Shown: positions 3,400 through 63,323 of the stretch, in pieces
How positions within the stretch are numbered: the stretch's first letter is position 1
Layout: each line of letters starts with the position of its first letter
Assembly (NCBI GenBank): GCA_039908525.1
Contig: JAMOAY010000006.1
Coordinates: 56,562-120,561 of the forward strand
DNA length: 64,000 nt
Reading direction: 5' to 3'
Source of the DNA: Magnetococcus sp. MYC-9
Lineage (GTDB): Bacteria; Pseudomonadota; Magnetococcia; Magnetococcales; Magnetaquicoccaceae
The notes under the pieces: model-generated
What the model was told of the DNA's origin: nothing
The model's input: the letters and a program-made list of their open reading frames with translations, nothing else
Databases searched by the model: none
Program-made: the position numbers and the translations under genes

Positions 3400-3407
3400 C
3401 CAAGACA

Positions 3408-4436: not shown

Positions 4437-7050
<2,614 letters not shown>

Positions 7051-20333: not shown

Positions 20334-20386
20334 AAATAATGGACCGGACAACGATCAAGCCCCCCATTCACAGGGGAATCAGCACG

Positions 20387-25668: not shown

Positions 25669-26192
25669 TGTCGCTCTTTGCCATCCTTTCCGCTCTGCTG
25701 GACTATCCCACGACGGAGTTGCAAGGGGCCCTGGGGGAGATTCGTCTGCGCACCGAGACGGCCAACGATCTGGAAGATGCCGAACGGCAGGCCATTCTGG
25801 CGCTGCTGGCCACCCTGGAGGAGTGTTCCATCGTGGAGTTGCAGAGCCGGTACGTGGAAATATTTGATCTGAACCCGGACCACAGTCTCCATTTGACCCA
25901 TCATCTGCTGGGGGATGACAACCGGGAGCGGGGACCGGCCTTGATCCAGCTGGCCAGCCATTTTTGCCAGCAGGGCTGGGAGATCCACAATGGCGAGCTG
26001 CCGGATTTTCTGCCTTTGTTGTTGGAATTTGCGGCACAGCTGCCGCTGCAGGATGCGGAATCCTTTCTGGCCGAAGCGGTTCCGGCCCTGGCCATCCTGG
26101 CCGGCAATCTGGAGCGGCACGGCCACCCAGCCCATGCGGCGCTGGTCCGTCTGGTGGAACGGCGCGGCAGACGGGCCCTGGCAACCGCCTGA
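25665..26192 (+). CDS. narJ: Nitrate reductase molybdenum cofactor assembly chaperone
   Basis: LLDYP, YVEIFD, RERGPAL, ELPDFLPLLLEF; position in the nar operon. Confidence 0.92.
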   Translation: MMSLFAILSALLDYPTTELQGALGEIRLRTETANDLEDAERQAILALLATLEECSIVELQSRYVEIFDLNPDHSLHLTHHLLGDDNRERGPALIQLASHFCQQGWEIHNGELPDFLPLLLEFAAQLPLQDAESFLAEAVPALAILAGNLERHGHPAHAALVRLVERRGRRALATA

Positions 26193-26209
26193 CATCATGG
26201 AGTCGTGCG

Positions 26210-26914: not shown

Positions 26915-26962
26915 TCCCCCTGAACCCGTCACAACTAAAAACCGCGTCTCGCCCCGGATACA

Positions 26963-26991
26963 TTGACTTTGCAAAAAAAAACCACTATTCT
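26963..26991 (+). promoter_or_regulatory. Sigma70 promoter upstream of infA
   Basis: TTGACT-N17-TATTCT followed by GC-rich GCCCGG. Confidence 0.6.
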
Positions 26992-27091
26992 GCCCGGTCT
27001 ACACGTCTGAAGGGTCCTGGGGACCTGTTTCGGAGATGAATGCGGTGCGCCGGAGTTGCGGCTTCTCGCCCGTTGTACGAAGGAGAATGCG

Positions 27092-27310
27092 GTGAGCAAG
27101 GAAGATGTGATCGAGATGGAAGGGACGGTTCTCGAGAACCTGCCCAATGCCATGTTCCAGGTGGAACTGGAGAACAAACACAAATTGCTGTGCCATATTT
27201 CAGGCAGAATGCGCAAACATTACATCCGCATCCTGCCGGGCGATAAAGTGACGGTACAACTGACCCCCTATGACCTCTCCAAAGGACGCATCTCCTATCG
27301 CCACAAGTAA
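27092..27310 (+). CDS. infA: Translation initiation factor IF-1
   Basis: [44 protein letters not shown]; GTG start after AAGGAG. Confidence 0.97.
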
Positions 27311-32913: not shown

Positions 32914-33497
32914 ACGGAAGACGCCAACCGATACCGACGATGGGACAGGGGCTGGCGGGCAAGTTTTTGATCGCCATGCCGGGTTTGCAGGATCCGAACT
33001 TTGAAAAGGCCGTGTTGTTTGTTTGCACCCACAACAAGGCAGGGGCCCTGGGCCTGGTGATCAACCAGCCCCACATCGCCGAGATGGCCGAAGTCCTGCT
33101 GCCGTTGGGCATGGCGTGGGACCGCCCGGAACCGCCCCAGGTTTTTCAGGGGGGACCGATGGCGATGGACCGGGGTTTCATGCTCTACGAAAGCGACCTG
33201 GACTACCCCGGCCACCTGCGCATCTGCGAAGATCTTTTCCTGGGTACCAATCCTGAAATTTTGCGTCATCTGGTACAGGCAGATGATCGGGGACGCCTTC
33301 TGTTTGCCCTGGGCTACTCGGGCTGGGGCAGCGGACAGTTGGAGATGGAATTGCGGGAGAATGTGTGGCTGGTCAGCGCCCTGGACCGCCGGATCCTGTT
33401 TGATCTGCCGATCCCCTATCGGTGGGAATCGGCCATCCGTCTGCTGGGCGTCGATCCCCGTCATCTGGTGGATCCGGGCCGGGGCTCGGTTCACTAG
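32910..33497 (+). CDS. YqgE/AlgH family protein
   Basis: FLIAMPGLQDPNF, GLVINQP, QGGP, LGYSGWGSGQLEMEL; ATG overlaps the mpl stop. Confidence 0.92.
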   Translation: MNGRRQPIPTMGQGLAGKFLIAMPGLQDPNFEKAVLFVCTHNKAGALGLVINQPHIAEMAEVLLPLGMAWDRPEPPQVFQGGPMAMDRGFMLYESDLDYPGHLRICEDLFLGTNPEILRHLVQADDRGRLLFALGYSGWGSGQLEMELRENVWLVSALDRRILFDLPIPYRWESAIRLLGVDPRHLVDPGRGSVH

Positions 33498-33588
33498 GAA
33501 CTCCACATGAAATTGCAGATCGCCTCTGGGTGAAAGACTCTTTTTGATCTCAAAATTGAGAAACTGCGCATCCCAGGACAGGTACGGT

Positions 33589-34881
33589 TTAGTACAAGCA
33601 TTCACGAACCATACCGAACATGCCAGAGGCAGATGGACGCAGTATCTGTCTATATGCTCTACGTGAATCGGCGTTTGACACAGATATATTTATGCCTAAT
33701 TTATAATTGACGACATCAATTGAGTAAGGCAAAAATTCTTTGGACAGATGCATACGATCATAAAATAAAGACTTGTTGGCAAGCCCATCATCGAGCATCG
33801 TGGCGGACAAGACAGACAATACGGGAACGCCGCTCAATTTACGCAACATCTCTGTAAACATAACAGCTGCATAATTTTTTTCCAATCCTGTTTGTCCGCC
33901 TGCACAAGAGCCAATAGGCGGTCCCCAAACAGCTATTTTATCGTAGACTTGTTTCAATTCTCGGATAAAGGAGATGTAACCGTTGACACTTTCAGTGACG
34001 GTTCCAAGCAGACCAGATTTTCTGGCAGTGGATTTTTTTAAAATATGCCAAGCAATATCGCACGCGCCAAAACTAAGCATGATCCAACCATCAAAACCGT
34101 GAGATAGTGCATGGCGCACACAGTCAAAAGATCTTTCTCTACCCGCATCTCCCTCATTTCGCAAACTCCAGGCATAGGAAGGCCCAACATATTCTGCCAG
34201 AATGCCTGGGATTAAGCTTAAGCCATCCATGTCCCGTCCAGCCCAAAACAAGCTATGACTGTCTCCAATGACTAATAGTGAGGTATGTTTAATTTTTGCA
34301 ACGTTACACTCCCACCTGACAGGTGAAGTGCCATCCCCTACCTTCCAAGTATAGGCCAGCATGATCTCCAACAAAAAACGTTTAATGGAGGCCAAGGAAG
34401 AAGGGTGCCGCACAGCTATGTTGACCATAATGGTCGCAATATAAACAGGCAGCGTCCCAGTTTGTGATAATTCCTGTATAATAGTCTCTGGCGTGGCAGA
34501 AGAAAATCGTTCTTGTATGATTGCGCTGGCACGATCTATGTTTGCGGAGTTATTTTTCGCCCAATTGTATGTCGATTGTAGAAACAAATTCTTATCGTAT
34601 TCTGGGCCCAACCTATCAAGAATGACCGTCGCAAGCTGCGCATGAAAATCACTGGCCGCAGCAAATTTATCGTAAATCTCTTTGTGGGGCTTTTGGTCAA
34701 TCAATCTAAAATTAATATATTCTATTACTGGAATTATCCTATTTACTAGTCGAGCTCTGACGTGCGTGCTGAATCGATGGATCAACTCTTCGCGTGGTAC
34801 TCCTCGGAGCAACATAGTCACCAACCAAGCAACCAAGTCCACGACAGCTACAGGCAATTCTTTTTCCATAGAGCGCGACAT
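33589..34881 (-). CDS. Hypothetical protein: N-terminal helical domain(s) plus C-terminal SGNH/GDSL-like hydrolase
   Basis: 430-aa ORF in AT-rich DNA; SGNH-like blocks VIGDSH, SFGACD, YDRMH; alternative start ATG 34869. Confidence 0.7.
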   Translation of the reverse strand: MSRSMEKELPVAVVDLVAWLVTMLLRGVPREELIHRFSTHVRARLVNRIIPVIEYINFRLIDQKPHKEIYDKFAAASDFHAQLATVILDRLGPEYDKNLFLQSTYNWAKNNSANIDRASAIIQERFSSATPETIIQELSQTGTLPVYIATIMVNIAVRHPSSLASIKRFLLEIMLAYTWKVGDGTSPVRWECNVAKIKHTSLLVIGDSHSLFWAGRDMDGLSLIPGILAEYVGPSYAWSLRNEGDAGRERSFDCVRHALSHGFDGWIMLSFGACDIAWHILKKSTARKSGLLGTVTESVNGYISFIRELKQVYDKIAVWGPPIGSCAGGQTGLEKNYAAVMFTEMLRKLSGVPVLSVLSATMLDDGLANKSLFYDRMHLSKEFLPYSIDVVNYKLGINISVSNADSRRAYRQILRPSASGMFGMVRECLY

Positions 34882-35086
34882 CCTTCAGGCAAAAAGTCAA
34901 CAGGAAAACCATGGATTGGTACATCATACCCGGACAGACCAGCAAAAATTGTAACTGAGTCGCGCACACCCGTTCAATCTCTGTCTCATAATGCTCTGTC
35001 CCATCATGGGGCGTGCTCATCGGAGGTGAACAACAAACAGCCACGCATCCCGGGATCAGGTGCGGTCTAAACCTGCCTGCACACTT

Positions 35087-35309
35087 TTATTTTTCCGAAG
35101 CCTCAAGGATATCCAATAAATCGCCAACGGTTACGATGGATTCCACCTCACTTGGCGCTATTACCACACCGTAGGCTTCCTCAACACCGATTACAAGATT
35201 CATTTGATTGAATGAATCCCAGGCATCCAGTTCCCTGATAACCAATATCTCAACTAAATTAATATTGGCATCCTGAAACGCCTCCTGGAAAATTTTTTCT
35301 TTTTTCCAT
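35087..35309 (-). pseudogene. Acyl carrier protein-like gene with a 1-nt frameshift near the start (missed by the ORF track)
   Basis: Hand translation: EKIFQEAFQDANINLVEILVIRELDAWDSFNQMNLVIGVEEAYGVVIAPSEVESIVTVGDLLDILEASEK*; ATG to TAA spans 223 nt (3n+1); the ATG is out of frame across a G-A6-G-A6 run. Confidence 0.75.
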
Positions 35310-35430
35310 TTCCAAACCCGAAGAGTTATTCGCTGAACGCGACGCCCCCCTGCGAGGGCAAAAAATCAACAACTGTATCGGCTTAGAGTGATAGGGAGTC
35401 TTCGACAACTTCGCCCCGTATACCCCACCC

Positions 35431-35478
35431 GAGGGATTTGCCCTCTGGGCACCCACCGGGGGCCGTGACGGCCCCCGG
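35431..35478 (+). repeat. Divergent member of the double-hairpin repeat family
   Basis: GAGGG-ATTTG-CCCTC TGGGCA CCCA CCGGGGGCCG-TGA-CGGCCCCCGG: same architecture, different stems. Confidence 0.55.
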
Positions 35479-35491
35479 CAAAAAATTTTAC

Positions 35492-35884
35492 TCAGAACGG
35501 CCACACCTTGGCAGACTGCTTTTTCTTCCAGTAGACATAACCGCCTGCGGTCAGCGCAGTGGCCAGCAGGAGCGGTCCCCAGGCACCAAGACCCAGACCC
35601 AACCCCAGACTCAACCCTTTGCCATTCCAGATTGTACCGGCGGCGACCTTGGAACCGGGACCCGCGACGGTGACAAGATTCGGATCCATGCCGGTCACCA
35701 CCACCCCTTTGCCGGTACCTGCACCGATCTGCATCGGTGTGGCGGCCGCAGCGGCCCCTTTGGCGCCAGCCGCCATCTTGGCGGGCACGATCTCCGGCGC
35801 GCTGAACTCGACAAACCCCGGCCCGGCGACTTTCAGGGTCTCTCCTGCCAGCAACTCCACAGCAAAACTTTGAGTAATCGCCAT
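35492..35884 (-). CDS. Mms6/Mms5/MamD-family magnetosome membrane protein-like
   Basis: AGTIWNGKGLSLGLGLGLGAWGPLLL (LG repeat plus TM helix), basic C-terminus; strong [10 protein letters not shown]. Confidence 0.85.
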   Translation of the reverse strand: MAITQSFAVELLAGETLKVAGPGFVEFSAPEIVPAKMAAGAKGAAAAATPMQIGAGTGKGVVVTGMDPNLVTVAGPGSKVAAGTIWNGKGLSLGLGLGLGAWGPLLLATALTAGGYVYWKKKQSAKVWPF

Positions 35885-36029
35885 GATTATTTAAACCTCC
35901 TTATCCAGAAAACGGACCCGAGTGCCTGAGGCACCACCATATAGCCCCCCGACCACTACGCCCGCAGCGTAACATGGACCCCATTCTGTCGCAACGCAGC
36001 AATGCCATTCCATCACAAAAAATTGCCCG

Positions 36030-48781: not shown

Positions 48782-49047
48782 GAACTGGCAGATGCCCCCT
48801 CACTCTCTTTGGGATGGAATAGACACACGTCGTAGCAAGCAGGCGTGGAACTTGGCAGGCTGCGACGAGCAACAGCAGATGGACAAGCATCAAAGACGGC
48901 TCATTCTGACTATCTACTTTCGAAAAATCAAGTAATTATGGTTAAAATACAGACAAAATTTCTTTTTTGAGTGGATTTTTTTGACAATTTCCCGTAGGGT
49001 GGAAAACTTGCGCGTAGTCGGCAAGCCAAATCAATTGCCAGGGGGGC

Positions 49048-49986
49048 ATGACGATGTTAACAGAAGGCGACATAAGAATAATAAGGGTTTTTGAAGTTGT
49101 GACAAAACTGCTCCATGCGGGCGCATCTGTGCATGGTGTCGAGGCAGGCTTCAAAAGCGTTGGGCACCTGACGAATGGACAACACTGTCTTTCCTGTGTT
49201 GAATTTATCAGGGCGCGGTTGATTAACGGGTACACCACCGAACAAATTCTGGAACATGTCGTTTACCAGCTCAAGATAAGTCGTCAGGTTGCAAATTTCA
49301 TTGTCGGCCTCGTGGAGCGTCTGCTGTTGCCGGTTGATTCACCATTATTCGACTTTATACGAAATCACGAACACAGGTACATATATAAGCCGTTTCACTT
49401 CCTGGAGATATATGAGCGCCATTTAGCAGGATTTCGCAACAAGGAAGTTTCACTGATGGAGTTCGGGGTGTTCCACGGGGGCTCGTTGCAAATGTGGAAG
49501 CACTACCTTGGGGAGCACGCAAAGATCTATGGTGTCGATATCGATCCAAGGTGCACGGTTGCCAGTGAAGAGCGTATCCGGGTAATTACGGCGGATCAGG
49601 GTGATGTCAGGGCACTGCGCGTCATCAAAAGATTCCTGCCCACATTTGATATCATTGTGGATGATGGTGGTCACTACATGCACCAGCAAATCAATACATT
49701 CGAGGAGATGTTTCCACATCTGAACGATGGCGGAATCTACCTTATAGAAGATATAGGAACAAGTTATTGGAAGAGTTGTGGTGGTGGTTACCGCAACCCA
49801 GGCTCCTTTATCGAATATTCGAAGCATCTGGTTGACCAAATCCACGCCAGACATTCCGATGAATTGTCTGCCGACAAATACACGGATTCCATATTCGCCA
49901 TGCACTATTACGACGGCGTCCTGGTCATCGAGAAAAGGTCTGTAGCACCTCCCATCGAAATGAAGTTTGGTTCCTTGTCTTTTTAA
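49048..49986 (+). CDS. Class I SAM-dependent (sugar O-) methyltransferase with an N-terminal domain of unknown function
   Basis: EFGVFHGGSLQMW, GVDIDP, DIIVDDGGH, GGIYLIEDIGTSYW; AT-rich relative to its neighbours. Confidence 0.82.
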   Translation: MTMLTEGDIRIIRVFEVVTKLLHAGASVHGVEAGFKSVGHLTNGQHCLSCVEFIRARLINGYTTEQILEHVVYQLKISRQVANFIVGLVERLLLPVDSPLFDFIRNHEHRYIYKPFHFLEIYERHLAGFRNKEVSLMEFGVFHGGSLQMWKHYLGEHAKIYGVDIDPRCTVASEERIRVITADQGDVRALRVIKRFLPTFDIIVDDGGHYMHQQINTFEEMFPHLNDGGIYLIEDIGTSYWKSCGGGYRNPGSFIEYSKHLVDQIHARHSDELSADKYTDSIFAMHYYDGVLVIEKRSVAPPIEMKFGSLSF

Positions 49987-50007
49987 CCCCAAGAGAAGGC
50001 TTGAAAC

Positions 50008-50808
50008 GTGATCCAAAACAGCATAACACACCGCAACCGTCACCCGGGCGGCTTCACCCTGATCGAAATCGCCATCGTGATCATCATCATCGGTCTGATC
50101 CTGGGCGGGGTGTTGAAAGGACAGGAGCTGATCCGCAGTGCCCGCACCCACAGCGTGGCGGACCAGGGCAGCGCCGTCAAGGCGGCCATCCTGGGCTTTG
50201 TGGACCGTTATCGGGCACTGCCAGGGGACTACGACAAGGCATCCGCCACCATCGCCGGGGTGGAGAGTGGACAGGACGGGGATGGCAACGGTCGGGTCGG
50301 CTACAACGACAGCGCCACTCCCGGCAAGCCGGATGAGGCCAACCGCCTGTTGGAGAGCGGCCTGGTATGGCTCCATCTGGTCAAGTCCGGCTTTCTCTCC
50401 GGGGGGTCTGATGGCAGACCTCTGCGTCCGGGGGATCTGGGCAGTTGGAGTTGCCCGACAGAAACCTGCATCCTGAACGCCTTCAATGGACCCATGATGT
50501 TCATCTATGCCAACGAACAGACGGGAGTCAACTGGGCCTCGGATTCGGCCTACAGCAATCAGCTGTGGGTGGGTAAAAATATTCCTGCCGAATTGATCGC
50601 CGAACTGGATCGCAAAATGGATGACGGCAGCCCCTCCACCGGCCATTTTCGCGCCGGGGATGGTTTTGTCGAGGGGGCCGCTGCCCTGGTCGGCAACATG
50701 TGTGCGACCGGAGGCAAGCTGCCCAAAAAGGAGCAACCGGAAGGGGTGCCCTTCAAATGGGACAGCAAAACCCAGGCCATCGACTGCGGGGCGGTGCTGC
50801 TGTTCTGA
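50008..50808 (+). CDS. Type IV pilin / T2SS pseudopilin-like protein
   Basis: Prepilin motif G|FTLIEIAIVIIIIGLILGGVLKG; DRYRALPGD; ELDRKMDDG; C-terminal cysteines. Confidence 0.88.
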   Translation: MIQNSITHRNRHPGGFTLIEIAIVIIIIGLILGGVLKGQELIRSARTHSVADQGSAVKAAILGFVDRYRALPGDYDKASATIAGVESGQDGDGNGRVGYNDSATPGKPDEANRLLESGLVWLHLVKSGFLSGGSDGRPLRPGDLGSWSCPTETCILNAFNGPMMFIYANEQTGVNWASDSAYSNQLWVGKNIPAELIAELDRKMDDGSPSTGHFRAGDGFVEGAAALVGNMCATGGKLPKKEQPEGVPFKWDSKTQAIDCGAVLLF

Positions 50809-50814
50809 GGCATG

Positions 50815-51846
50815 TCATGCACAAAGGCCGCGCAACTGTCCACAGGCCGCTGCAATATCCCCACCCCGACTGTCCCGGATCACCGTCACCAGTCCGGCGT
50901 TGCACACCACCTCCTGAAACCGCAGGGTGGTCTCACGGGGGGAGGGCTCAAACGGAGCCCCCGGCCAAGGGTTGAAGGTGATCAGATTGACCTTGGAAGG
51001 AATCCCTTTCAGGAACTCAACCAGCTCTCGGGCATCCTGGGTGGTGTCGTTGATCCCCTTCAACAGAAGATACTCCCAGGTGATGCAGCGTCCGTGTTTG
51101 AGGGGAAACGCCTGAATGGCCTGACGCAACATCTGGAGCGGGAATTTCCGGTTGAGGGGAATGAGCTGGTCCCGCACCGGATCCCGCACGCTGTGCAATG
51201 AAATGGCCATATTGATGCCCAGATCCCAGCCGACCTGCACCAGACGGGGCACGACCCCGGCGGTGGAGAGGGTGATTTTGCGGGTGCCAATCGCCAACCC
51301 GGTGCCGTTCAGCAAGATGCGCACCGCCTTGACCACCGCATCGTAGTTGTACAACGGCTCGCCCATGCCCATCAGGACCACGTTGGTCACCTTCTGTCCC
51401 CGTTTTGCCAGTTCCGAGCGGGCGAAGGTGACCTGTTCGACCATCTCGGCCGCCTCCAGATTGCGCGACAAGGGCTGAGTGCCCGTATAACAAAAGGTGC
51501 AGGCCAGGGAACAGCCGACCTGGGAAGAGAGACACAAGGTGCCCCGGTCGGGATCGGGAATATAAACCGTCTCGATCCTCGCCCCGTCGGCCAATGCCAG
51601 CAGCCACTTTTCGGTACCATCCTGGGAGATCTGATGGGCCAGCGTCCGGGGTACCAGGGGCGGAGAGAGTTCCAGCAGGCGACTGCGCAGGGCTGCGGGC
51701 AGATCGGTCATCTCCTCCACATGGCGCGCCAGTTTGATGTACAGCCAGGACCAGATCTGCTTGGCGCGGTAGGGTCGCTCGCCCCACGCCTCCATCAGAC
51801 CACTCAACTCCTCCCAGGTCAAACCGGTCAAACGCAGCGCACCCAT
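50815..51846 (-). CDS. rlmN: Dual-specificity rRNA/tRNA methyltransferase RlmN
   Basis: ETVYIP, CLSSQVGCSLACTFC, MGMGEP, STAG, SRGGDIAAACGQL. Confidence 0.95.
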   Translation of the reverse strand: MGALRLTGLTWEELSGLMEAWGERPYRAKQIWSWLYIKLARHVEEMTDLPAALRSRLLELSPPLVPRTLAHQISQDGTEKWLLALADGARIETVYIPDPDRGTLCLSSQVGCSLACTFCYTGTQPLSRNLEAAEMVEQVTFARSELAKRGQKVTNVVLMGMGEPLYNYDAVVKAVRILLNGTGLAIGTRKITLSTAGVVPRLVQVGWDLGINMAISLHSVRDPVRDQLIPLNRKFPLQMLRQAIQAFPLKHGRCITWEYLLLKGINDTTQDARELVEFLKGIPSKVNLITFNPWPGAPFEPSPRETTLRFQEVVCNAGLVTVIRDSRGGDIAAACGQLRGLCA

Positions 51847-51942
51847 GACAAACCTTTTGCAGCACACAGTACAAATGCCGGGGAACGGGCGGTTTTCCTC
51901 GATCGTTCCCCGGCCGGAACAGACTCAATGAAAGCAAGGGTA

Positions 51943-52371
51943 TCAAGGCCGACTGTGGATCTCCATACCGCCAAAGAAAAAGGCGATCTCCTGGGCCGCC
52001 GTCTCCGGGGCATCGGAACCGTGCACCGCGTTGGCCTCGATGCTGCTGGCAAAGTCCGCCCGAATCGTACCGGGAGCGGCGTTGGCCGGATTGGTGGGCC
52101 CCATGATCTCCCGATTGCGGGCAATGGCACCCTCCCCCTCCAACACCTGCACCATGATGGGCCCGGAGCTCATGTAGTTCACCAGGTCCGCATAAAAGGG
52201 TCTGCCCCGGTGCACCGCGTAGAAGGCCCCTGCCTGAACAGCGGAAAGGTGCAGCATCTTGCTGGCGACGATCCGCAACCCGGCGGCCTCAAAACGGGCA
52301 TAAATTTGACCGATGACATTCTTGGCAACGGCATCGGGCTTGACCATGGAAAGAGTCCGTTCAACAGCCAT
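51943..52371 (-). CDS. ndk: Nucleoside diphosphate kinase
   Basis: [42 protein letters not shown]. Confidence 0.97.
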
Positions 52372-52388
52372 GTTGTTCTCCTGTTTGC

Positions 52389-52509
52389 TGTGGATAAACC
52401 TGTGGATAAAAGTGGAACAAAACCTGAAAAACATTGCGCAACACACTGAAATAAATAAATAAACATGGATAAAACAACGCCTGTCAGCCCTGTGGCTAAC
52501 TGTAAATAA
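52389..52509 (+). promoter_or_regulatory. DnaA-box cluster in the divergent ndk intergenic region
   Basis: Perfect TGTGGATAA at 52389 and 52401; near matches TGTGGCTAA (52491), TGTAAATAA (52501), CATGGATAA (52464); AT-rich AAATAAATAAATAAA between them. Confidence 0.7.
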
Positions 52510-52610
52510 CTTGCCCTCTCCGCCACCACCTTGTATAGTGCAGGTCTGGGTGGCTCGCTGCCCACCGTCCCTCTATCGTTGACGCATTTTCTTGGAGAGA
52601 GAACCCTGAC

Positions 52611-53534
52611 ATGCCTACCTTCCTGCCACACAAAACCGGCGGCCTGGCCGCTCTTTTGTGCCTGTCCACCCTGTTGCTGCAACCCGGCGTCGCCGGAGCG
52701 GCCGTGTGGTACACCGGGGAGTTCTCCGCAGACATTATCATCACCGATCCCCGCGCGCCAGATGGCAAGGTGCGTGGCAGCTTTTATGTCGGCAAGGACC
52801 GCTTCCGGGCGGAGGGCATCCACCAGGGCAAGAGAAAGGCCCTGATCGTCCATCCCCAGGAGCGCAAGGTCTGGATGCTCCTGCCGGAGGAAAAAAGCTA
52901 CTACGCCGGCGCCGGGGGGGCACCGGTCCCTCCCAAGCCGGACATTGACCGCCTGCCGGGCGACAACGACGGCCCCTGCAGGCAGGATAAGGCCATAAGC
53001 TGCACACGGCTAGGGACAGAAAAGCTCAACGAGGTGGAAACCGAAAAATGGGAGGTGAAAATCACCCCGCCCGGCCCGCCCCCTGGTCAGCCAACGGCAG
53101 GGGCCCCTACTGAGCAACCGGTGCAAAAGGCGACCGTCTGGGCCGATCCCAAGCGGCATATCATCGTTCGCCAGCAACTGGAAGGAGGTCCCGCCATGGA
53201 ACGACTCCTGGTGGCAACGGAGAAGGTGGCCGACCGTGCGACGGAAAAATGGGCGGTCACACAAACTTTCCAGGGCGCCAGTCAAAAATATTTCCGTTGG
53301 GTAGACAGCCGGTTGCGGGTGCCTGTGCGCGAAGAGGAGGATGGCAAGGTGGTCATGGAGCTGGTCAATATCCAGGAAAAACCCCAGGCAGCTGCCCTGT
53401 TTGAGATACCCAAAGAGTACAAGGAGGTCCAACCTCCCGCTCCCCCTGCGGCGGATGCGGGCCCAGGGCAGACCAGACTGGATGAGCTGCCTGCGGCATC
53501 TCCCCCACCGCCTGGCAAGTTGCAATACCGTTGA
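52611..53534 (+). CDS. Exported DUF4412-like / LolA-fold-like protein with an internal repeat
   Basis: Signal peptide; EFSAD..KDRFRAE..KVWMLLP; two TEK..TEKW..WxD blocks; LFEIP. Confidence 0.7.
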
Positions 53535-53622
53535 TCCACACATCTCTCCCCCGACGACCCGGACGCGGGCGGGGAGACGGGGCGGATCTCTGCAACATCG
53601 GGCGTCGAATGAGGAGTCGGTC

Positions 53623-54369
53623 ATGGCAGGACACAGCAAGTGGGCCAATATCAAGATCCGCAAGGGGGCACAAGATGCCAAGCGCGGCAAGATATTTACC
53701 AAATTGATTCGCGAAATCACCACGGCAGCCCGCCTGGGTGGCGCCGATCCCTCTGCCAACGCCCGCTTGCGGGGTGCGGTCATCGCAGCCAGGGGGCAGA
53801 ACATGCCCAAGGACACCATGGAAAAGGCCATCAAACGGGGCGCCGGTGGTCTGGATGGGGCCAACTATGAAGAGGCCCGCTACGAAGGGTACGGTCCCGG
53901 TGGGGTGGCGGTGATCGTACAAACGCTGACCGACAACTACAACCGCACGGTTGCCGATGTGCGTCACGCCTTCAGCAAATACGGCGGCAATCTGGGCACG
54001 GCCGGCTGTGTTGCCTATCTGTTTGACAACAAAGGCGAGCTCATCTTCGAGAACTGCAGTGAAGACCAGCTGATCGAGGCCGCCCTGGAAGCGGGTGCCG
54101 AGGATGTGATGGCGGACGGCACCACCTTTGAGGTGATCACCGCCCCGGACCAACTGCACGCGGTGCAAGAACTCCTGACCCAGGCCGGTTTCAACCCTGT
54201 ACAGGCCGGGTTGATCATGCGACCACAAAACAGTGTCACCCTGGACGAAAAACAGGCCAGCTCCATGCTGAAGTTGATGGACATGCTGGAGGATAATGAT
54301 GATGTGCAAAAGGTATATGCCAATTTTGACATTCCTGACGAGATTCTGGAACGCCTGGCAGGCGCCTGA
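53623..54369 (+). CDS. yebC: YebC/PmpR family regulator
   Basis: [43 protein letters not shown]. Confidence 0.97.
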
Positions 54370-54370
54370 C

Positions 54371-54886
54371 ATGCGCGTGATCGGTATTGATCCCGGCACA
54401 ATAACAACCGGATGGGGCATTGTGGAGGCCCATGGCAGTCGCCTGCGTCATGTGGCCAACGGCTGTATTCGCACGCAACCGGGAGAGTCCCTGCCCACCC
54501 GATTGGGGAAGATTTTTGCGGATCTGAGCAGGATCATCACCGAGCATCAACCGCAAGAGGCTGTCATCGAAGAAGTTTTTGTCTCACACAACGTGCAGAG
54601 TGCCCTGAAACTGGGCCATGCCCGGGGAGTGGCCATCGCCGCTGCCAACCAGCAAGGGCTGCCGATCCACGAATATACGGCGATGCAGGTCAAAAAGACG
54701 GTGGTGGGCTACGGGCGGGCAGAAAAGGGGCAGATGCAGGAGATGGTCCGTATTTTGCTTTGTATGGGGAGAACGGCGCCTCAGGATGCAGCCGATGCCT
54801 TGGGGGTGGCCATCTGCCATTTGAACCATCTCCCCGTCCGGTCACTGCAGGGGACCGGTTCGGTTCGTGCGGGTGTGCTGCCGTGA
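54371..54886 (+). CDS. ruvC: Holliday junction resolvase RuvC
   Basis: RVIGIDPG, IEEVF, LKLGHARG, GYGRAEK, DAADALGVAICH. Confidence 0.97.
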   Translation: MRVIGIDPGTITTGWGIVEAHGSRLRHVANGCIRTQPGESLPTRLGKIFADLSRIITEHQPQEAVIEEVFVSHNVQSALKLGHARGVAIAAANQQGLPIHEYTAMQVKKTVVGYGRAEKGQMQEMVRILLCMGRTAPQDAADALGVAICHLNHLPVRSLQGTGSVRAGVLP

Positions 54887-55530
54887 TTGCCATGTTGCGC
54901 GGGGTTCTGGAGGAGAAGCAACCGGACCAGATCGTGCTGGATGTGGGCGGCGTGGGGTATCGGCTGTTCATACCCCTCTCCAGCTACGAAAAGCTGCCGT
55001 CGGTGGGAGAAAAGGTGCGTCTTCTCACCGTGACCCATGTGCGAGAAGATGCCCTGCATCTCTACGGCTTTGTCACTCAGGAAGAGCGGCAGCTGTTTGT
55101 ATTGCTGAACAATGTCAGTGGGATCGGCACCCGACTGGCCACCTCAGCCCTCTCTGCCTTGAGTGCCTCTGCCTTGGCTGCAGCGATTGCCGGCGAGGAT
55201 CTCCACACTTTGTGTCTGATTCCCGGTGTCGGTCGCAAAACGGCACAACGACTGGTCATTGAATTGAAAGACCGTTTGCCGGCCAGGAGCTTCCCGGCCA
55301 CCGGAGGTGAGCACGAAGGGGGCCCGGTGGCATCGGATCTGTCGGTCGTCTCTCCTCCCTCCCATGCGCAGCTGCGCGGGGAGTTGAGTTCGGCGTTGAT
55401 GAATCTGGGCTACAAGCGGCCGGAGGTGGAACGGGTGCTGGAGCAGCTGTTCCGTGGCGCCCGGATCGCCAGCGTCAGCGAGGGGCTGCGGGCCGCCCTT
55501 AAAGCGTTGGCCCGCCCGGTGTCCGAATGA
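54883..55530 (+). CDS. ruvA: Holliday junction branch migration protein RuvA
   Basis: [47 protein letters not shown]. Confidence 0.96.
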
Positions 55531-56564
55531 GCTCCGCAGGCGAGCCGCAGCGCCTGTTGTCGGCTGCGGCCGAGTGGGGCGAGCCCCCTCTGGATCCGGC
55601 CCTGCGTCCCCGACAGCTGGTAGAGTTTATTGGGCAAAGCAAACTGAAAACCAATTTGATGGTTTTCCTGCAGGCCGCCAGGAATCGTGGCGAGGCGATG
55701 GATCATGTGCTGCTGCACGGTCCGCCGGGTCTGGGCAAAACCACGCTGGCCCGCATCATTGCCGCCGAACTGGGTGTGGGGTTGCGCACCACCTCCGGTC
55801 CCATCATCGAAAAAGCGGGGGATCTGGCCGCGCTGCTCACCAACCTGGAGCGGGGTGATCTGCTGTTCATCGACGAGATCCACCGGCTCAGCCCCTCGGT
55901 GGAAGAGATTCTGTACCCGGCCATGGAAGAGTACCAGCTGGATATTCTGATCGGTGAAGGACCATCGGCCCGCTCCATCAAGATCGACCTCCCCCCGTTT
56001 ACCCTGGTGGGGGCCACGACCCGGATCGGCCTGTTGACCAACCCTTTGCGGGACCGGTTCGGTATTCTGGCACACATGGAGTTCTATCGACCGGAGGAGC
56101 TGACGGCCATCTTGCGTCGTTCTGCCCGCCTGTTGCGGGTCACCCTGGACGATTCGGGGGCCGAGGAGATTGCCCGTCGCTCCCGTGGCACCCCACGGAT
56201 TGCCAACCGCCTGCTGAAACGGGTACGTGACTTTGCAGAGATCATGGGCCGGGGCCACATCGATCAGGAGATGGCCGGCCATGGGCTGGAGTTGCTGGAG
56301 GTGGACCATCGCGGACTGGACAGCATGGATCGGTTTTTCCTTACCACCCTCATCGACAAGTTTGCCGGGGGTCCGGTGGGACTGGATACCCTGTCGGCGG
56401 CCATCAGCGAGACCCGTGACACCCTTGAGGATGTGGTTGAGCCCTATCTGCTGCAGGAGGGGTTCCTGGATCGTACCCCGCGGGGGCGCCGGGCAACGGC
56501 GCTGGCCTACGGCCATCTGGGTCGAACGGCGGCCTTGCCCGGTGGACAAGGATCCTTGTCGTGA
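55527..56564 (+). CDS. ruvB: Holliday junction helicase RuvB
   Basis: [45 protein letters not shown]. Confidence 0.98.
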
Positions 56565-57064
56565 CGGAAGAGGCTTTTCTTTGGCCGGTTCGGGTCTACT
56601 ATGAGGCGACAGATGCCGGTGGCGTGGTCTACCACAGCCGCTATCTGAACTTCATGGAACGGGCCAGAACCGAGTGGTTGCGCCACATGGGTTTCAACCA
56701 GGAGCAACTCCATCGGGAACAGGGAGTGCTGTTTGCCGTTACCCGGATGGAGATCCGGTTTTTGGCCCCGGCCCGATTGGACGACACCCTGTTGGTCTCT
56801 GTGGCGCTCCAAAGCCACAAACAGGCCAGCCTGCTCCTGCAGCAGGGAATCCATCGCGTACACGATCAACGACCCCTGATCCGGGCCACGGTGGAGATCG
56901 TTGCCTTGAATCACCGCTTCAAGCCGACCCGCTTGCCGAGCGGCTTGTTGCACCGGATGCGGCACCCGGAACAGAGCGGCGGCGCTCATGCCGTCTCCGA
57001 GCGGGATACGTCGGCAAACGCAGGATATTTCGGTCAACCCTTTACCAATGGTCCAACTCAATGA
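56561..57064 (+). CDS. ybgC: Tol-pal-associated acyl-CoA thioesterase
   Basis: [34 protein letters not shown]; position before tolQ. Confidence 0.9.
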
Positions 57065-57771
57065 ATGAAACTCTCGCATCCCACAACCCCTGGGATCTGG
57101 TCAGCCAGGCGGGGCCCGTGGTCAAGATGGTCATGCTGCTCCTGCTGGGGGCCTCCATTTGGTCCTGGAAAATCATTATCGAAAAGTGGATGCTCTTCCG
57201 CCGGGTCACCCAGGAGGCCACGGCCTTCGAGGAGCGGTTCTGGAGCGGTGGCAGCATCGCCAAGCTCTATCAATCGGCGGCGCGAGAGTGGCCGGACAGT
57301 CCCCTGGTCAACGTCTTCACCACCGGTTTCCGGGAGTGGAAACGTTGGGAGGGGGAGGATGGCGTACCCGCCGCCGGCGAAGCCGGGGATCTGCTGCCCA
57401 ACATTCGCCGGGCCATGACGGTCGCTCTCAACCGGGAGATGGACAACATGGGGCGGGGTCTGACCTTCCTGGCCACCACCGGCTCGACCAGTCCCTTCAT
57501 CGGCCTGTTCGGAACCGTCTGGGGGATCATGAACTCCTTTCTGGGGTTGGCGGGTGCGAAAAACACCACCCTGACCATGGTGGCTCCGGGTATTGCAGAG
57601 GCACTGATTGCCACGGCCATGGGTCTGGTGGCCGCCATTCCGGCGGTGATCGCCTACAACAAATTTGCCACCAACTTGCGTCGTTTCCATCAAAAACTGG
57701 ACAATTTCGGCGCCGAGTTCCTGAACATTCTGGAGCGGCAGAGCGCGCGCCGGGGAGGAAAAACCTCATGA
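57061..57771 (+). CDS. tolQ: TolQ
   Basis: SIWSWKII, LATTGSTSPFIGLFGTVWGIM, PGIAEALIATAMGL..AIPAV. Confidence 0.95.
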   Translation: MNETLASHNPWDLVSQAGPVVKMVMLLLLGASIWSWKIIIEKWMLFRRVTQEATAFEERFWSGGSIAKLYQSAAREWPDSPLVNVFTTGFREWKRWEGEDGVPAAGEAGDLLPNIRRAMTVALNREMDNMGRGLTFLATTGSTSPFIGLFGTVWGIMNSFLGLAGAKNTTLTMVAPGIAEALIATAMGLVAAIPAVIAYNKFATNLRRFHQKLDNFGAEFLNILERQSARRGGKTS

Positions 57772-58193
57772 GCATGGGTGTCAATTTCAACAGTCAAGGT
57801 TCAGAACATGGCACCATGAGCGACATCAACGTCACACCCATGGTAGACATCATGCTGGTTCTGCTGGTCATCTTCATGGTAACCGCCCCTCTGCTGACCC
57901 AGGGGGTCGAGGTCAATCTGCCCTCCACCCATGCTGCGCCCCTCAACTCCAAGCAGGAACCGGTGATCATCACGGTCAATCAGGATGGTCTGGTCTATAT
58001 CGAAAAAAATCTGCTCAATACCGCGCAACTGATCGAACGGGTATCCGCGATGCGCAAAAGCAACCCGGATCTGCCCATCTTTGTGCGGGGTGATCGCAAG
58101 TCGGCCTATGGATCCGTCATGATCGTGATGTCCCAGTTGCAACAGGCTGGCGTGGATCGTATTGGTCTGGTCACTGAGCCACCTGCGCAATAA
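57768..58193 (+). CDS. tolR: TolR
   Basis: [35 protein letters not shown]. Confidence 0.95.
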
Positions 58194-58197
58194 GTTC

Positions 58198-59541
58198 ATG
58201 GCACCCAATCGCAAACCGCTGATTGTTTCGGTCGTCGGCCACCTTCTGTTGCTGGCCATGGCGTTTCTTATGCCCTTCTCTCCGCCAGAGAAGGAGCCGA
58301 CGCCGCCCGTGATGGTCAGTCTGGTACAGTTGCCGCCGACTGACAAGGCCAAGCCCAGCGCCCTCCCGAAACCTGAGGAGGAGACTGTCGCGGAAACTGC
58401 GGAGCCTGCAGAGACGACTCCGATTGTGGAGCCTGTCAAGGTTCTTCCGCCCATGGCGCCCCTCAAGCCGGCCTTGCCTCCCCCGCCGCCCGTCACGGAA
58501 CCGATCAAACTGCCCCCTCCTCCCCCGGAGAAAGCAGTGATGGAGCCCAAGCCAGAACCTGAGCCAAAACCTGTACCCAAGCCGGAGCCCAAACCGGAGC
58601 CCAAACCCGCGCCCAAACCGGAACCCAAGCCGGAACCCAAGCCGGAACCCAAGCCCGCACCCAAACCGGAACCCAAACCGGAACCCAAGCCCGCGCCCAA
58701 GCCGGAACCGAAACCGGAACCCAAGCCCGCGCCCAAGCCGGAACCCAAGCCGGAGCCCAAGCCCGCGCCTAAACCAGAGCCCAAGCCGGAACCCAAACCG
58801 GAGCCCAAGCCCGCGCCCAAACCGGAGCCCAAACCAGAGCCCAAGCCCGCGCCCAAGCCGGAACCCAAGCCGGAGCCCAAGCCAGAACCGAAACCTGCGC
58901 CCAAATCGGAACCCAAAGCGGAGCCCAAGCCCGCGCCCAAACCGGAGGCCAAGCCCACGCCCAAGCCAGAACAGAAGGCGGAGCCCAAGGTCGTAAAAAA
59001 GGAGGAACCGACCAAGAAGGAGAAGGGCTCGGAGGCGCAAAAGCCGACCGAGGACAAAAAAAGCAGGAGCGAGCCCACAAAGCCTGTAGAACCGGTCAGG
59101 AAACAGTCTGAAGAACCGGATTTCTCTTCGATCACGGCAGCCATTGCCAAAACCCAACCCGCACCGCGGGCTCCGCAACCGCCTGCGGCGCGACCGACTC
59201 CGGCCGTCCCGGCTCCGGCCCAACCGGCTGCGGCCAGCCAAGAGCCACGGGCATCCAGCTTGACGGTCTCGCTCTGGCAACGCAAAATCCACAGCAAGAT
59301 TTATGAAAGCTGGAACAAACCCAGCGGGTTACCCAATGAAAACAGCCTGGTGGTAACCGTGGTGGTGGCTGTGGGACCCGATGGCACCTTGATGAACCCC
59401 CGCATTATGCGAACCTCCGGCAATGCCGTGTTTGATCGTTCGGTGGTTGGAGCCGTTCTGAAAACTTCCATGGTGGAACAACCGCCAGCCGGTTGTCCCG
59501 AGTGCCGCGAGCTGGAAATCAATTTCCGACCGCAGCGATGA
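58198..59541 (+). CDS. tolA: TolA/TonB-like energy transducer with a long Pro-Lys-Pro-Glu linker
   Basis: N-terminal TM with SVVGH (SxxxH), Pro-rich linker, TonB-C-like domain ([15 protein letters not shown]); follows tolQR. Confidence 0.85.
58543..58989 (+). repeat. 12-bp coding tandem repeat (~37 units, consensus CCCAAGCCGGAA) encoding (PKPE/PKPA)n
   Basis: Directly visible tandem array inside tolA. Confidence 0.95.
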
Positions 59542-60854
59542 CCCATGCTCCCGCCATGAACAAGGGAACTGGTCCTCTCGCCAATGCCGAACTGTGCACG
59601 CAGTGTGGTTACTGTCTGCCGGTGTGCCCCACCTATCGGGTGGAAAACAACGAAATGCATTCGCCCCGCGGTCGGGTTTCCATTGTCCTGGCGCTGCAAG
59701 CCGGCACGGTAACCCCCGAAGAGGCGGCAACGGCCCTGGACCACTGTCTGCTGTGCAGGGCCTGTCATAATGCCTGCCCGGCCGGAGTACGACCGGCCAA
59801 ACTGGCCATGCTGGTACGCAGGATGGCCCCTCCCCGACCCAGCCCGATGGGACAACTCCTGCACCGTATCACCAACAGTGCACCCTGGACGGCGCGTTTC
59901 AGTACCCTGCTGGGCTTGTACCAACACTCCGGGGCGCAGGCTGCGGTGCGGCGTCTGGGACTGCTGCGACCTCTGCCGGCCCTGGCCCGTCTGGAAGCAT
60001 TGCTGCCCCGTTACCGACCCGGCGCATCCATCCCCCCGTTTCCATCGCGCCACACCGCCATACCGGGAGTGCTGCGGGTTGGCTTGCTGAGTGGCTGCAT
60101 GGGTCGTCTTTTCATGCCGGGCATTGCGCCCTCCTCCGGCCAATTGTTGGCGCACGGGGGGAGAGAGGTGGTCCCGCTGGAGGGGTTTGGCTGCTGTGGC
60201 GCCCCGTTCCGGGAGGGAGGGGACAAAAAGGCTTTTCTGCGGCAGGCCCGGCGCACCCTGGATGCCTTCCTGGCCAGTGGGCCTCTGCAAGCCGTGGTGT
60301 GTGACAGCAGCGTCTGTGCGGTGACGATAAAAGGTTATGGACATGCCCTGGCCGACGATGCGACCTATGCAACCCCGGCCCGGAACTTCTCCGCGCAGGT
60401 ACATACCCTCAGCCAGTTTCTGGCCAAAAACCCTGCCTGTGAGGCAGAAACAACCATCGATCCCGGTTTCGGCAGCCTCGCCTATATTGACCATTGCCAA
60501 ACACGGTTTGGTTTGGGTATCATAAATGAACCCAGGTTTCTCTTGGCCTCCCTGCCCGTTGTCTGCCACGAGTTGTGGCAGGGCACTTCCTCTGCAGCAG
60601 AGGGGTGTTGTGGCGCCGGCGGAGATTATCAGCTGCGCCATCCTGAGCGCAGTCAAGAGATCAGGGCCGCCCAATTGGCAGCCCTTTGCGCCACGGGAGT
60701 CGATACGGTCGTCGGTGAAAATCCCGGCTGCTTGATGAATATCGCGGCAGGGCTGGAACATATGGGCTCCGCCGTCCAGGTACGCCACTTGGCGGAGGTG
60801 TTGTGGGCTGCCCATTCTCTGCAACAACCAACCATTCACAAGGTGCACTCATGA
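59538..60854 (+). CDS. GlcF-like Fe-S oxidoreductase (two 4Fe-4S plus CCG domains)
   Basis: [29 protein letters not shown], two CCG motifs, ENPGC; ATG overlaps the tolA stop. Confidence 0.88.
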
Positions 60855-61975
60855 ACAGGACAGCTTTTTTTGCCCTCATCGCCACTTGTCTGACGGTCGG
60901 CCTGGCCACCGTGACCCTCTGGCCGGAGGATGCCGATGCGGCCCGCGCCGGGAGCGGCAGCTCCGTGGGCAGCCGCGGATCCCGGAGTTTCTCCACCCCC
61001 CGGCAGGCAACCCCGGCTCCGACCAGCACCGCCCCCATGCGCCAAAGCACCCCTGCCGCTGCGGCACCGGCCACAGCCGCCGCGCCCCGCCCGGCACCGG
61101 CCATGCCTGCTCCCTCCATGCCCGCCCCCGTCTCCTCCGGTATGAGTTCGGGCCTGATGGGTGGACTGGGCGGTTTGGCCTTGGGTGGCCTGCTGGGCGC
61201 CACCTTGTTCGGTGGCAGCAACGGCACCACAACAGGTGGTAGCGGTACGGAGGCTGTGACAGGCGCCGCCCATACCGCCGGGGCCACCGGCGGCGTAGGG
61301 GGTAGCGGGATTGGCCTTCTGGAAATCCTGCTGATTGGTGCCGTGATCTGGTTTGCCGTGCGTTGGTTCAGGCAGCAAAAAGAGAAGGCCATCGCACCCG
61401 TGGGCTCGTATGGCAACATTGCCCGGGAAGGTATGGCAGAATCCTTTCTCGGCAAGCCGGCCATGCATATGCCCAATACCATCTCCACAGGTCCGACGGA
61501 CGATCTGGCCCAGGGATTGGCCAACATTGCCAGCATGGACCCCCATTTTGACGAAGGCCGCTTCCTGGAAGGGGCAAAAATGGCCTTCCAGCATATCCAG
61601 GGCGCCTGGGCCGACTGGAGCGTCGAGCGGTTGCGTCCTCTGCTCACCGAACGCATGTGGCGTTTGATCGAGGCCCAGGCCATCAGCCGCAAGGCGGAGG
61701 GAAAACGGGATATCATTGAGAAAATTCGCTTTACCCAGGCGGAGATCACCGAAGCCTGGCAGGAGGCGGGCGAGGACTGGCTGACCGTCCATTTCCTGGT
61801 GGAGATGGTGGATTATACCACCGATTTCCAGGGCAATCTCCTGGAAGGCAACCCCAACGTCAGCACCACGGTGGAGGAGTATTGGACCTTCTGCCGTCCT
61901 GTGGGCAGTCGGGAACCCGGCTGGTTCCTGTCGGCCATTCAGCAACCCGGAGAGGTGGCAAGAAGTGCGGCTTGA
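60851..61975 (+). CDS. Tim44/TimA-like membrane protein
   Basis: ARAGSGSSVGSRGSR, Gly-rich TM region, DPHFDEGRFLEGAK, EEYWTF. Confidence 0.88.
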   Translation: MNRTAFFALIATCLTVGLATVTLWPEDADAARAGSGSSVGSRGSRSFSTPRQATPAPTSTAPMRQSTPAAAAPATAAAPRPAPAMPAPSMPAPVSSGMSSGLMGGLGGLALGGLLGATLFGGSNGTTTGGSGTEAVTGAAHTAGATGGVGGSGIGLLEILLIGAVIWFAVRWFRQQKEKAIAPVGSYGNIAREGMAESFLGKPAMHMPNTISTGPTDDLAQGLANIASMDPHFDEGRFLEGAKMAFQHIQGAWADWSVERLRPLLTERMWRLIEAQAISRKAEGKRDIIEKIRFTQAEITEAWQEAGEDWLTVHFLVEMVDYTTDFQGNLLEGNPNVSTTVEEYWTFCRPVGSREPGWFLSAIQQPGEVARSAA

Positions 61976-63323
61976 TCGTTTGCGGCGCTTCGTGGCCGGG
62001 GGCATCTCCCCGGTGGGGCTGTGGAGAGGGGTTCTCCATAGCCCCACCGGGCAGCGCGACACCCATCAGCCCCCCGCATACATCAACCGTCATTTTGCCC
62101 CGCTGTTGGTTGCCCTTTTGCTTCTGTCCGGTTGCCAGGGTGTGCCCTGGCAAGGGGCGGTTGTCGACAAATCCCGCCACCGGGTCGGAGAGGCCACGGC
62201 GACGACCAGCCTGGAGGCGGTCTCCTGGTCGGAAATCCCTCCGGGCTTGGTGCAGGATCGGACGACGCTGCCCTGGGCAGAGGCTCTGGAGCAGAGCGCC
62301 CACTACTATCGCCGACTCCCCCCGCAACAAACATTTCAGTTCGGCCCCGCCAAGGTCACCGCCGTGGCCATGGCCAGGGCCTGTACCGAGCTGGCGGATG
62401 TGGCCCGCACGGGAGATGTGGATCGGTTGCAGAGCCTCCTGCAACAGCGATTCCGTCTGTACCGGGCGGTTGGCAACAACGAAGGTGATGTGATGGTAAC
62501 GGCCTACTACGAACCGCTCCTGCACGGTTCGTTGCGGCGTTCCAACCGGTATTACTATCCCATTTATCGCCGTCCCCCGGATCTGCTGGAATCGGGCGCC
62601 AGCGGCCAACGCACCGTCCGCCGCAAAGAAAAAGGCAGGCTGGTGCCTTACTACGATCGCCAGCAGATCGATGGCACGTTTTTCTCTCCTGAGCTGCTGG
62701 GCAAACTGGCCAACCGCGGTCTGGAGTTGGTCTGGGTGGACAGCGCCATCGACGCCTTTTTTCTGCATATACAAGGTTCCGGTCGGGTCTTGCTGGAGAA
62801 TGGTCAGATCCTGCGTCTCGGCTATGACAGCAACAACGGTCGTTCCTATGTGGCCATTGGCAAGATACTGATCGATGAGGGCAAGATTGCCAGGGAAGAG
62901 ATGACCATGCCGCGCCTGCGCCAATGGCTGTTGGACAATCCATCTGAAAACCAGCGGTTGTTCTTTGCCAATCCCTCCTATGTGTTTTTCCGCGAGCTGC
63001 ACGGCGACCCGGTAGGCAACATCAGCGTGCCTCTGACCCCTCAACGGTCGATTGCCACCGATCACCGCCTGTTTCCCAAGGGTGCACCGGCCATCCTGGT
63101 GACCACAGTGCCCTTGTTGGCCGAAGATGGCAAACAGGTAACGGGTTGGCAACCCGATGCGCGGTGGGTGGTCAATCAGGACACGGGTGGGGCCATTCGA
63201 GGTGCGGGACGGGTGGATCTGTTTGTGGGTTTCGGAGAAAACATCGAGTACCAGGCGGGCGTGATGAAGCAACCCAACTCCCAACTCTATTTTATCGCGC
63301 CGCTGTATGGCCTGCGTGAGTAA
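61965..63323 (+). CDS. mltA: Membrane-bound lytic murein transglycosylase A
   Basis: VTAYYEP, FFLHIQGSG, NGRSYVAIG, NPSYVFF, SIATD, QDTGGAIRG..DLF; lipobox LSGC suggests a later start. Confidence 0.93.
   Translation: MRLDRLRRFVAGGISPVGLWRGVLHSPTGQRDTHQPPAYINRHFAPLLVALLLLSGCQGVPWQGAVVDKSRHRVGEATATTSLEAVSWSEIPPGLVQDRTTLPWAEALEQSAHYYRRLPPQQTFQFGPAKVTAVAMARACTELADVARTGDVDRLQSLLQQRFRLYRAVGNNEGDVMVTAYYEPLLHGSLRRSNRYYYPIYRRPPDLLESGASGQRTVRRKEKGRLVPYYDRQQIDGTFFSPELLGKLANRGLELVWVDSAIDAFFLHIQGSGRVLLENGQILRLGYDSNNGRSYVAIGKILIDEGKIAREEMTMPRLRQWLLDNPSENQRLFFANPSYVFFRELHGDPVGNISVPLTPQRSIATDHRLFPKGAPAILVTTVPLLAEDGKQVTGWQPDARWVVNQDTGGAIRGAGRVDLFVGFGENIEYQAGVMKQPNSQLYFIAPLYGLRE

Follow-up and report, generated by a model that had tools for sequence, protein, structure and literature searches.

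A candidate DnaA-binding module, probably not a replication origin, between the divergent ndk and DUF4412-yebC-ruv genes of Magnetococcales

The 239-bp intergenic gap at positions 52372 to 52610 of the window (the whole 64-kb stretch of DNA that was analyzed) separates two divergent genes, ndk on the minus strand and a DUF4412 gene on the plus strand, and is probably a non-origin DnaA-binding module in a divergent promoter region. This module would regulate both the ndk and the DUF4412-ruv-tol units and would also titrate DnaA. Judged by its sequence, the gap most likely links genes for nucleotide supply and DNA repair to the replication cycle. The original prediction had proposed that the gap is an origin, a datA-like site, or a DnaA-controlled ndk promoter, and a DnaA-controlled promoter is the best supported of these three readings, although it is clearer on the ruv side than on the ndk side. 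The anatomy of the gap supports such control most clearly for DUF4412-yebC-ruv-tol, but for ndk itself no convincing promoter could be defined.

The DnaA regulon has been characterized in few species and differs between them (PMC8203912), and this locus is a clean, phylogenetically footprinted candidate target in the Magnetococcales, a deep-branching, hard-to-culture proteobacterial order. Neither PMC8203912 nor PMC11317965 names ndk, ruv, or tol as a DnaA target. As putative targets, these genes would couple replication initiation to NTP/dNTP balance, recombination repair, and envelope division.

Boxes and promoter elements of the ndk/DUF4412 gap

The gap has an A+T content of 53.6%, compared with ~39% for the window, and its description in the original prediction as an A/T-rich divergent gap of 239 bp was exact in its coordinates. 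Its features and those of the neighboring genes are listed in Table 1, together with the loci of relatives that are discussed below. The relatives' loci (designated by L numbers) come from 11 species-representative genomes, with more loci found via ndk and YebC homologues, and their synteny was checked. The gene order rlmN-ndk/DUF4412-yebC-ruv is kept in the 8 closest genomes, in which the DUF4412 protein is 64 to 74% identical, and rlmN-ndk synteny is retained in relatives. The DUF4412 homologues that carry names are all from Magnetococcales, and an exact-sequence look-up of the window's ndk and DUF4412 proteins returned no identical entry on record. A scan of the gap against Rfam gave no match, and no public sequencing runs are listed for the locus. 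Between DUF4412 and yebC, neither a terminator nor a promoter was detected on the plus strand, and therefore the plus-strand promoter in the gap probably drives at least DUF4412-yebC-ruvCAB. To the right of the gap the genes are all on the plus strand, as had been noted at the outset, but the 10 kb to the left are mixed rather than mostly minus, and from 13.8 to 33 kb the genes are almost all plus.

Table 1. Features of the ndk/DUF4412 region of the window and of related loci
Feature	Positions	Strand	Remarks
rlmN	50815-51867	-	Pfam RlmN_N and Radical_SAM; 3' of ndk, same strand
ndk (nucleoside diphosphate kinase)	51943-52371	-	Pfam NDK, E=4.4e-56
ndk leader	52372-52388	-	Ribosome-binding site GGAGA at 52377-52381, read from sequence; conserved in gap alignment
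Perfect double DnaA box (block 1)	52389-52409	-	Minus strand reads TTATCCACA-ggt-TTATCCACA; starts 17 nt upstream of ndk ATG
Inter-block spacer	52410-52490	.	Length 78-80 bp across 9 genomes in the register used; sequence variable
Putative DnaA box TGTGGCTAA (plus-strand reading), 1 mismatch	52491-52499	-	~-55 to -47 of plus-strand promoter
DnaA-like box TGTAAATAA, 2 mismatches	52501-52509	-	~-45 to -37; 1 nt from -35 hexamer
Sigma-70-type promoter TTGCCC-17-TATAGT	52511-52539	+	Inferred transcription start near 52546
DUF4412 protein gene	52611-53534	+	Pfam DUF4412; signal-peptide-like N-terminus; first gene 3' of plus-strand promoter
yebC	53623-54369	+	Followed by ruvC, ruvA, and ruvB, ending at 56564
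yebC-ruvC-ruvA-ruvB	53623-56564	+	
ybgC-type thioesterase, tolQ, tolR, tolA-like gene	56561-59541	+	Extends the same-strand gene string
L014 (intermediate relative)	4780-4870 (ENA ERZ24794644 contig)		ndk-proximal array of 7-8 tandem co-oriented boxes, 11-12 bp period
L015 (intermediate relative)			Two double boxes; yebC present, ruvCAB absent downstream
L016 (intermediate relative)			One perfect box and one decayed
L144 (WYHC-3)	3368-4000		Double box in A/T-rich gap (633 bp), beside ndk
L010	9432-9995		Double box in A/T-rich gap (563 bp); GAPDH in place of ndk
L009, L011, FCR-1 (L012), L142, L143 (deeper relatives)			Same ndk/DUF4412 junction, recognizably the same promoter, no boxes
MC-1, Magnetofaba australis (marine)			yebC-ruv located elsewhere; no boxes upstream

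Block 1, on the ndk side, consists of TGTGGATAA at 52389-52397 and again at 52401-52409, co-oriented, with a spacing of 3 bp and no mismatch in either half. The original prediction had reported exactly this pair, and no other perfect DnaA box occurs in the 64 kb, for which the expected number is 0.18. We counted as a double box any two boxes 2 to 3 bp apart with ≤3 mismatches in total; composition-preserving shuffles give an expectation of 0.01 per window for such pairs. The sequence at 52389-52409 is also a double DnaA box as the term is used in PMC11317965 (two co-oriented 9-mers with 2- to 3-bp spacing). In ~260 kb of Magnetococcales DNA, double boxes are confined to the ndk/DUF4412 gap or to the gap upstream of the DUF4412 homologue of L010. 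The gap alignment places block 1 at the same position in L001 to L008, 17 to 19 nt from the ndk ATG and directly past the ribosome-binding site. Its repeat unit is actually 11 nt long (CTGTGGATAAA), and a third copy, CTGTGGCTAAC, is found at 52490. When the aligned relatives were scanned with a position weight matrix (PWM), no conserved sigma-70 promoter could be defined for ndk. The candidates are weak and partly conserved, and they would place the double box at ~+17 to +37 of the transcript. Since no ndk promoter is definable, any mode of action of block 1 on ndk is a guess.

Block 2 (CCTGTGGCTAAC-TGTAAATAAC) comprises the boxes at 52491 and 52501, which are spaced by 1 bp, and it is invariant in 8 of the 9 aligned sequences, with a single change in the remaining one. 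The 52491 box is TGTGGCTAA in 8 of the 9 closest genomes and TGTGGCTGA in L004, while the 52501 box is TGTAAATAA in all 9 and TGTGAATAA, with 1 mismatch, in L015 and L016. In L003, L005, and L006, TGTGGCTAA is preceded at a distance of 3 bp by one more box, GGTGGATAA, so that block 2 forms a double box of its own in these genomes. Three further near-consensus boxes had been proposed for the gap. The two in block 2 are real and conserved, but the third, CATGGATAA at 52464 (2 mismatches), is not conserved in the gap alignment and was rejected as a box; it is probably due to chance. The same probably holds for TGATCCACA at 53532-53540 (1 mismatch, overlapping the DUF4412 stop codon), since none of the 11 relatives checked has it.

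The sigma-70-type promoter beside block 2 is the sole promoter-like match in 52200-52800. Of the 9 aligned relatives, 8 have it as their top PWM match, and in L005 it ranks second by a small margin (12.4 versus 12.5). Twelve loci have conserved it in the form TTGATC-17-TATAGT/TATATT. The distance from the end of block 2 to the -35 hexamer is 1 nt in 12 loci. Both blocks are therefore found, and conserved, on or beside core promoter or leader elements, block 2 at the -35 hexamer and block 1 at the ndk leader.

In the gap alignment, blocks 1 and 2 stand out as two conserved islands; the -35 and -10 hexamers, the ribosome-binding sites, and the spacer length are conserved as well, and the remainder is free to vary. 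The block-to-block distance is ~102 bp, or ~10 helical turns, and is conserved. The A+T content of the spacer ranges from 49 to 66% across 9 genomes and is 49 to 53% in L003, L005, and L006. The A/T stretch to which the original prediction had drawn attention is present (AAATAAATAAATAAA, 52449-52463), but it is specific to the genome of the window. Also within the spacer is the palindrome TTGCGCAA at 52434-52441, which may be a second regulator site or an ndk -35 element. Related forms occur in L008 (TTGTACAA), in L016 (TGCGTAACATTACGCA), and past the double box in L144 (TGCGCAA). Consensus scans of the gap found no GATC, GANTC, CtrA, or IHF motifs; for IHF, the scan by consensus only (WATCAANNNNTTR) gave no match on either strand.

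Distribution of the boxes among relatives

The number of ndk-proximal boxes ranges from 2 to ~8 among relatives (Table 1), and this range between species offers a natural experiment in the evolution of operator or titration capacity. The arrays of L014 and L015 indicate that the copy number of the 12-bp unit evolves quickly. In the box-less deeper relatives, the same promoter is present without boxes, which suggests that the boxes are an add-on to an older promoter. By this comparison, the boxes have been gained and lost on a promoter region that is older than they are. Gain and loss of sites on an older promoter is how operators behave and is generally not how origins behave.

The marine Magnetococcus marinus MC-1 differs in other ways at these genes. 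An IS66-family element (TnpB and transposase) splits ruvA from ruvB (L139 12751-15067; CP000471 ~573-575 kb), and Fer4/CCG, Tim44-like, and MltA genes are divergent upstream of yebC; in the window, these genes are downstream of tolA (59493-63323).

A putative DnaA operator compared with known systems

According to ChIP-seq data from Escherichia coli, nearly all DnaA binding is at double boxes with 2- to 3-bp spacing (Stringer, Fitzgerald & Wade 2024, PMC11317965). The E. coli DnaA regulon is compact and includes genes for nucleotide synthesis (nrdA, nrdD, and purH), DNA repair (uvrB and polA), and RNA metabolism (PMC11317965). At nrdAB, which has boxes in its promoter region, the level of DnaA and its bound nucleotide decide between activation and repression (PMC8203912). 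By analogy, a DnaA dimer or oligomer on the double box of the ndk gap would repress ndk-rlmN, either as an obstacle to RNA polymerase or by covering a weak promoter. As at E. coli nrdAB, DnaA bound at -37 to -55 would either activate the plus-strand promoter, when occupancy is low, or repress it, when occupancy is high. With their fixed spacing of ~10 helical turns, the two blocks may act cooperatively. Genes for nucleotide supply, Holliday-junction processing, and Tol-dependent division would then follow the initiation potential of the cell, and a site of such affinity would also titrate or sequester DnaA.

Some observations count against a DnaA operator. The two boxes of block 2 are 1 bp apart, not the 2 to 3 bp preferred in E. 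coli. There are no boxes upstream of yebC-ruv in MC-1 and Magnetofaba australis, and many relatives are box-less at the junction. The box-less relatives indicate that any regulation by these boxes would be dispensable and clade-specific.

The closest parallels are the E. coli double-box sites at nrdA, polA, purH, and nrdD (PMC11317965), in which pairs of co-oriented 9-mers with 3-bp spacing likewise precede genes for nucleotide supply and DNA repair. In contrast to these sites, both halves of the double box are perfect at the ndk gap, which is the case at no E. coli site, and the ndk gap has two blocks ~102 bp apart, serves divergent units, and varies in box copy number by species. Its predicted targets are also different (ndk-rlmN and DUF4412-yebC-ruvCAB-tol). 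In Caulobacter crescentus, DnaA ties S-phase entry to genes for nucleotide supply and division (gcrA, ftsZ, podJ, and nrd; Hottes 2005 per PMC8203912). This regulon resembles the proposed one in that respect, and the lineage is related to the Alphaproteobacteria, but the genes are others and the ndk gap is without CtrA or GANTC motifs.

Replication origin and other alternatives

The gap could instead be the oriC of this Magnetococcales clade, with DnaA on the co-oriented boxes opening the A/T-rich inter-block spacer, but we consider this quite improbable. It is true that co-oriented boxes are clustered in an A/T-richer divergent gap, that the box array reaches 7 to 8 boxes in L014, and that the double boxes of L010 and L144 are in long A/T-rich gaps. 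However, an origin has little support here: there is no compositional switch at 52.4 kb, no conserved unwinding element, and no box at the same junction in five relatives. The tests of asymmetry were local and covered the window and flanks of +/-10 kb. Within the window, the GC, AT, RY, and MK disparity curves have no extremum at 52.4 kb, and the AT and MK curves rise monotonically from 27 to 60 kb. An origin should show opposite skew signs on its two flanks. In 8 of 9 box-bearing loci, read in window orientation, the +/-10-kb flanks have the same GC-skew sign, both negative in some and both positive in others (L010 is positive on both), and the sum of the two flank skews is far above their difference. 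Opposite signs are found only in L008, for which the flanks are short. The implied replication component of the flank skew is ~0.06, and a 20-kb MC-1 segment that is inside a replichore, according to the positions of dif and of the skew maximum, has a value of 0.066. The flank-skew pattern is that of a locus within a replichore. The polarity of the KOPS-like motif GGGNAGGG does not flip at the site, although its counts are low, and the genes at 13.8 to 33 kb point toward the site. As the original prediction had correctly stated, origin genes are absent nearby: there is no dnaA, dnaN, gidA/B, parA/B, or hemE among the scanned ORFs of the 64-kb window, and the relatives' flanks are also without them.

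Origins with a basal unwinding system (BUS; Pelliciari 2021, PMC8287927) share tandem co-oriented boxes with the ndk gap, which also has an A-rich stretch 5' of block 2, but the ndk gap is without trios at its strong boxes, a conserved unwinding element, a compositional switch, and origin-linked genes. The BUS rule (PMC8287927) looks for an unwinding element or DnaA-trios ≤16 bp 5' of TGTGGATAA, and the E. coli control was detected with it. DnaA-trios are beside the perfect double box in 0 of 14 loci; the 5' side of this box is the start of ndk, and the box is directed toward the coding sequence of ndk rather than toward the A/T tract. Beside block 2, 9 of 14 loci have minimal permissive matches (3 NAN triplets), which count in favor of an origin; the sequences of these matches are not conserved, and L008, L014, L015, and L144 have none. 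The A/T tract is not conserved either, and the low A+T content of the spacer in L003, L005, and L006 and the lack of GATC, GANTC, CtrA, and IHF motifs also count against an origin. The cluster as a whole has a low count, with two perfect boxes and another with one mismatch within 110 bp. For calibration, we used the exact 21-mer TGTGGATAAACCTGTGGATAA, which has >120 metagenomic matches. These are in unrelated bacteria, and no ndk locus of Magnetococcales is among them. The 21-mer is too generic as a probe for the Magnetococcales locus, and its matches served only to calibrate box counts and neighbors. Of 100 such sites with adequate flanks, 72 have 2 to 4 boxes within +/-300 bp, and the ndk/DUF4412 gap has 3. 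Nine sites among the 21-mer loci L019 to L138 are near a dnaA 3' end, and the majority of the dnaA-linked sites have 12 to 18 boxes in this interval, compared with 3 here. Twenty neighboring genes that were sampled include 3 dnaN genes, 1 parA-like gene, and 1 gene for an HNH endonuclease. Some of the 21-mer sites resemble mobile elements.

A variant of the origin reading is that a freshwater Magnetococcales clade has its working origin in the gap, moved to or retained at ndk/DUF4412-yebC-ruv with promoters embedded in it, and that the MC-1 site predicted by DoriC is homologous to it. This, too, is quite improbable. The DoriC element of MC-1 (ORI50040081) is 5'-AATTAGAAAAAGGTGC-TGTGGATAA-CTGGAATAA at 26.9 kb of NC_008576, and yebC-ruv is at 577 kb. 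This element loosely resembles block 2 of L003, L005, and L006, but an ungapped comparison of the MC-1 34-mer with all fetched loci gave no match at ≤10 mismatches. As the ndk gap shows, an origin should not be assigned just because a perfect double DnaA box separates two divergent genes.

Another alternative is that the gap is purely a site of DnaA management, either a datA-like one, for titration or hydrolysis, or a DARS-like one, for reactivation, and that its position at promoters is incidental. We regard this as rather unlikely. E. coli datA (PMC11317965, Table 1) and the non-origin clusters of Bacillus subtilis (PMC2533591) are also intergenic, with high-affinity boxes able to sequester DnaA, and E. 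coli datA and DARS are likewise upstream of genes and contain double boxes (PMC11317965). The affinity predicted for the ndk gap is very high, with both halves perfect, and none of 16 E. coli DnaA-bound regions matches it (PMC11317965). The variable tandem copy number would fit a role in dosage or titration. However, the ndk gap has fewer boxes (3 to 4) than those clusters and no IHF consensus site, which datA needs for its function, and the site has been lost in many relatives. Its boxes are also in precise register with promoter elements: block 2 is locked to the -35 hexamer with 1-nt precision in 12 genomes, and block 1 is locked to the ndk ribosome-binding site. Titration would not require such a register, which therefore counts against titration alone. 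By sequence, a putative datA-like titration role is inseparable from that of a DnaA-controlled promoter. Least probable, in our view, is that the CTGTGGATAAA and CTGTGGCTAAC repeats are bound by another, lineage-specific regulator, or that TTGCGCAA marks the real regulator, and that the match to the DnaA box is a coincidence. The conserved unit of 11 nt does exceed the 9-mer box, the promoter-proximal pair has a noncanonical 1-bp spacing, and a palindrome, TTGnnCAA, recurs in the spacer. Yet coincidence would hardly produce two exact universal 9-mers with the canonical spacing of 3 bp, the same 21-mer is found beside dnaA or dnaN in unrelated bacteria, and the predicted MC-1 origin has the same standard box.

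Several other parts of the window have distinctive features. Three extrema of the cumulative curves, the GC maximum (26795), the AT minimum (26894), and the MK minimum (26841), coincide at 26500-27300, in the interval from narI to a parE-like gene; this compositional switch is terminus-like or rearrangement-like, and no dif-like site was found in the window. The stretch at 48800-50810, between an FtsX/MacB-type permease and rlmN, has a lower GC content (~0.53) and contains a methyltransferase gene (49048-49986) and a gene for a pilin-like N-methyl protein (50008-50808), and the region past rlmN varies among relatives. A low-GC island at 33000-36000 (0.485 to 0.50, versus ~0.61), which may be acquired DNA, includes a 430-amino-acid ORF on the minus strand (33589-34881) that has no Pfam match. 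Finally, a single ORF at 15368-17089 combines a PP2C-type phosphatase domain with a Ser/Thr protein kinase domain and adjoins a nitrate/nitrite cluster consisting of a nirB-like gene (17352-19793) and narGHI (20339-26914).
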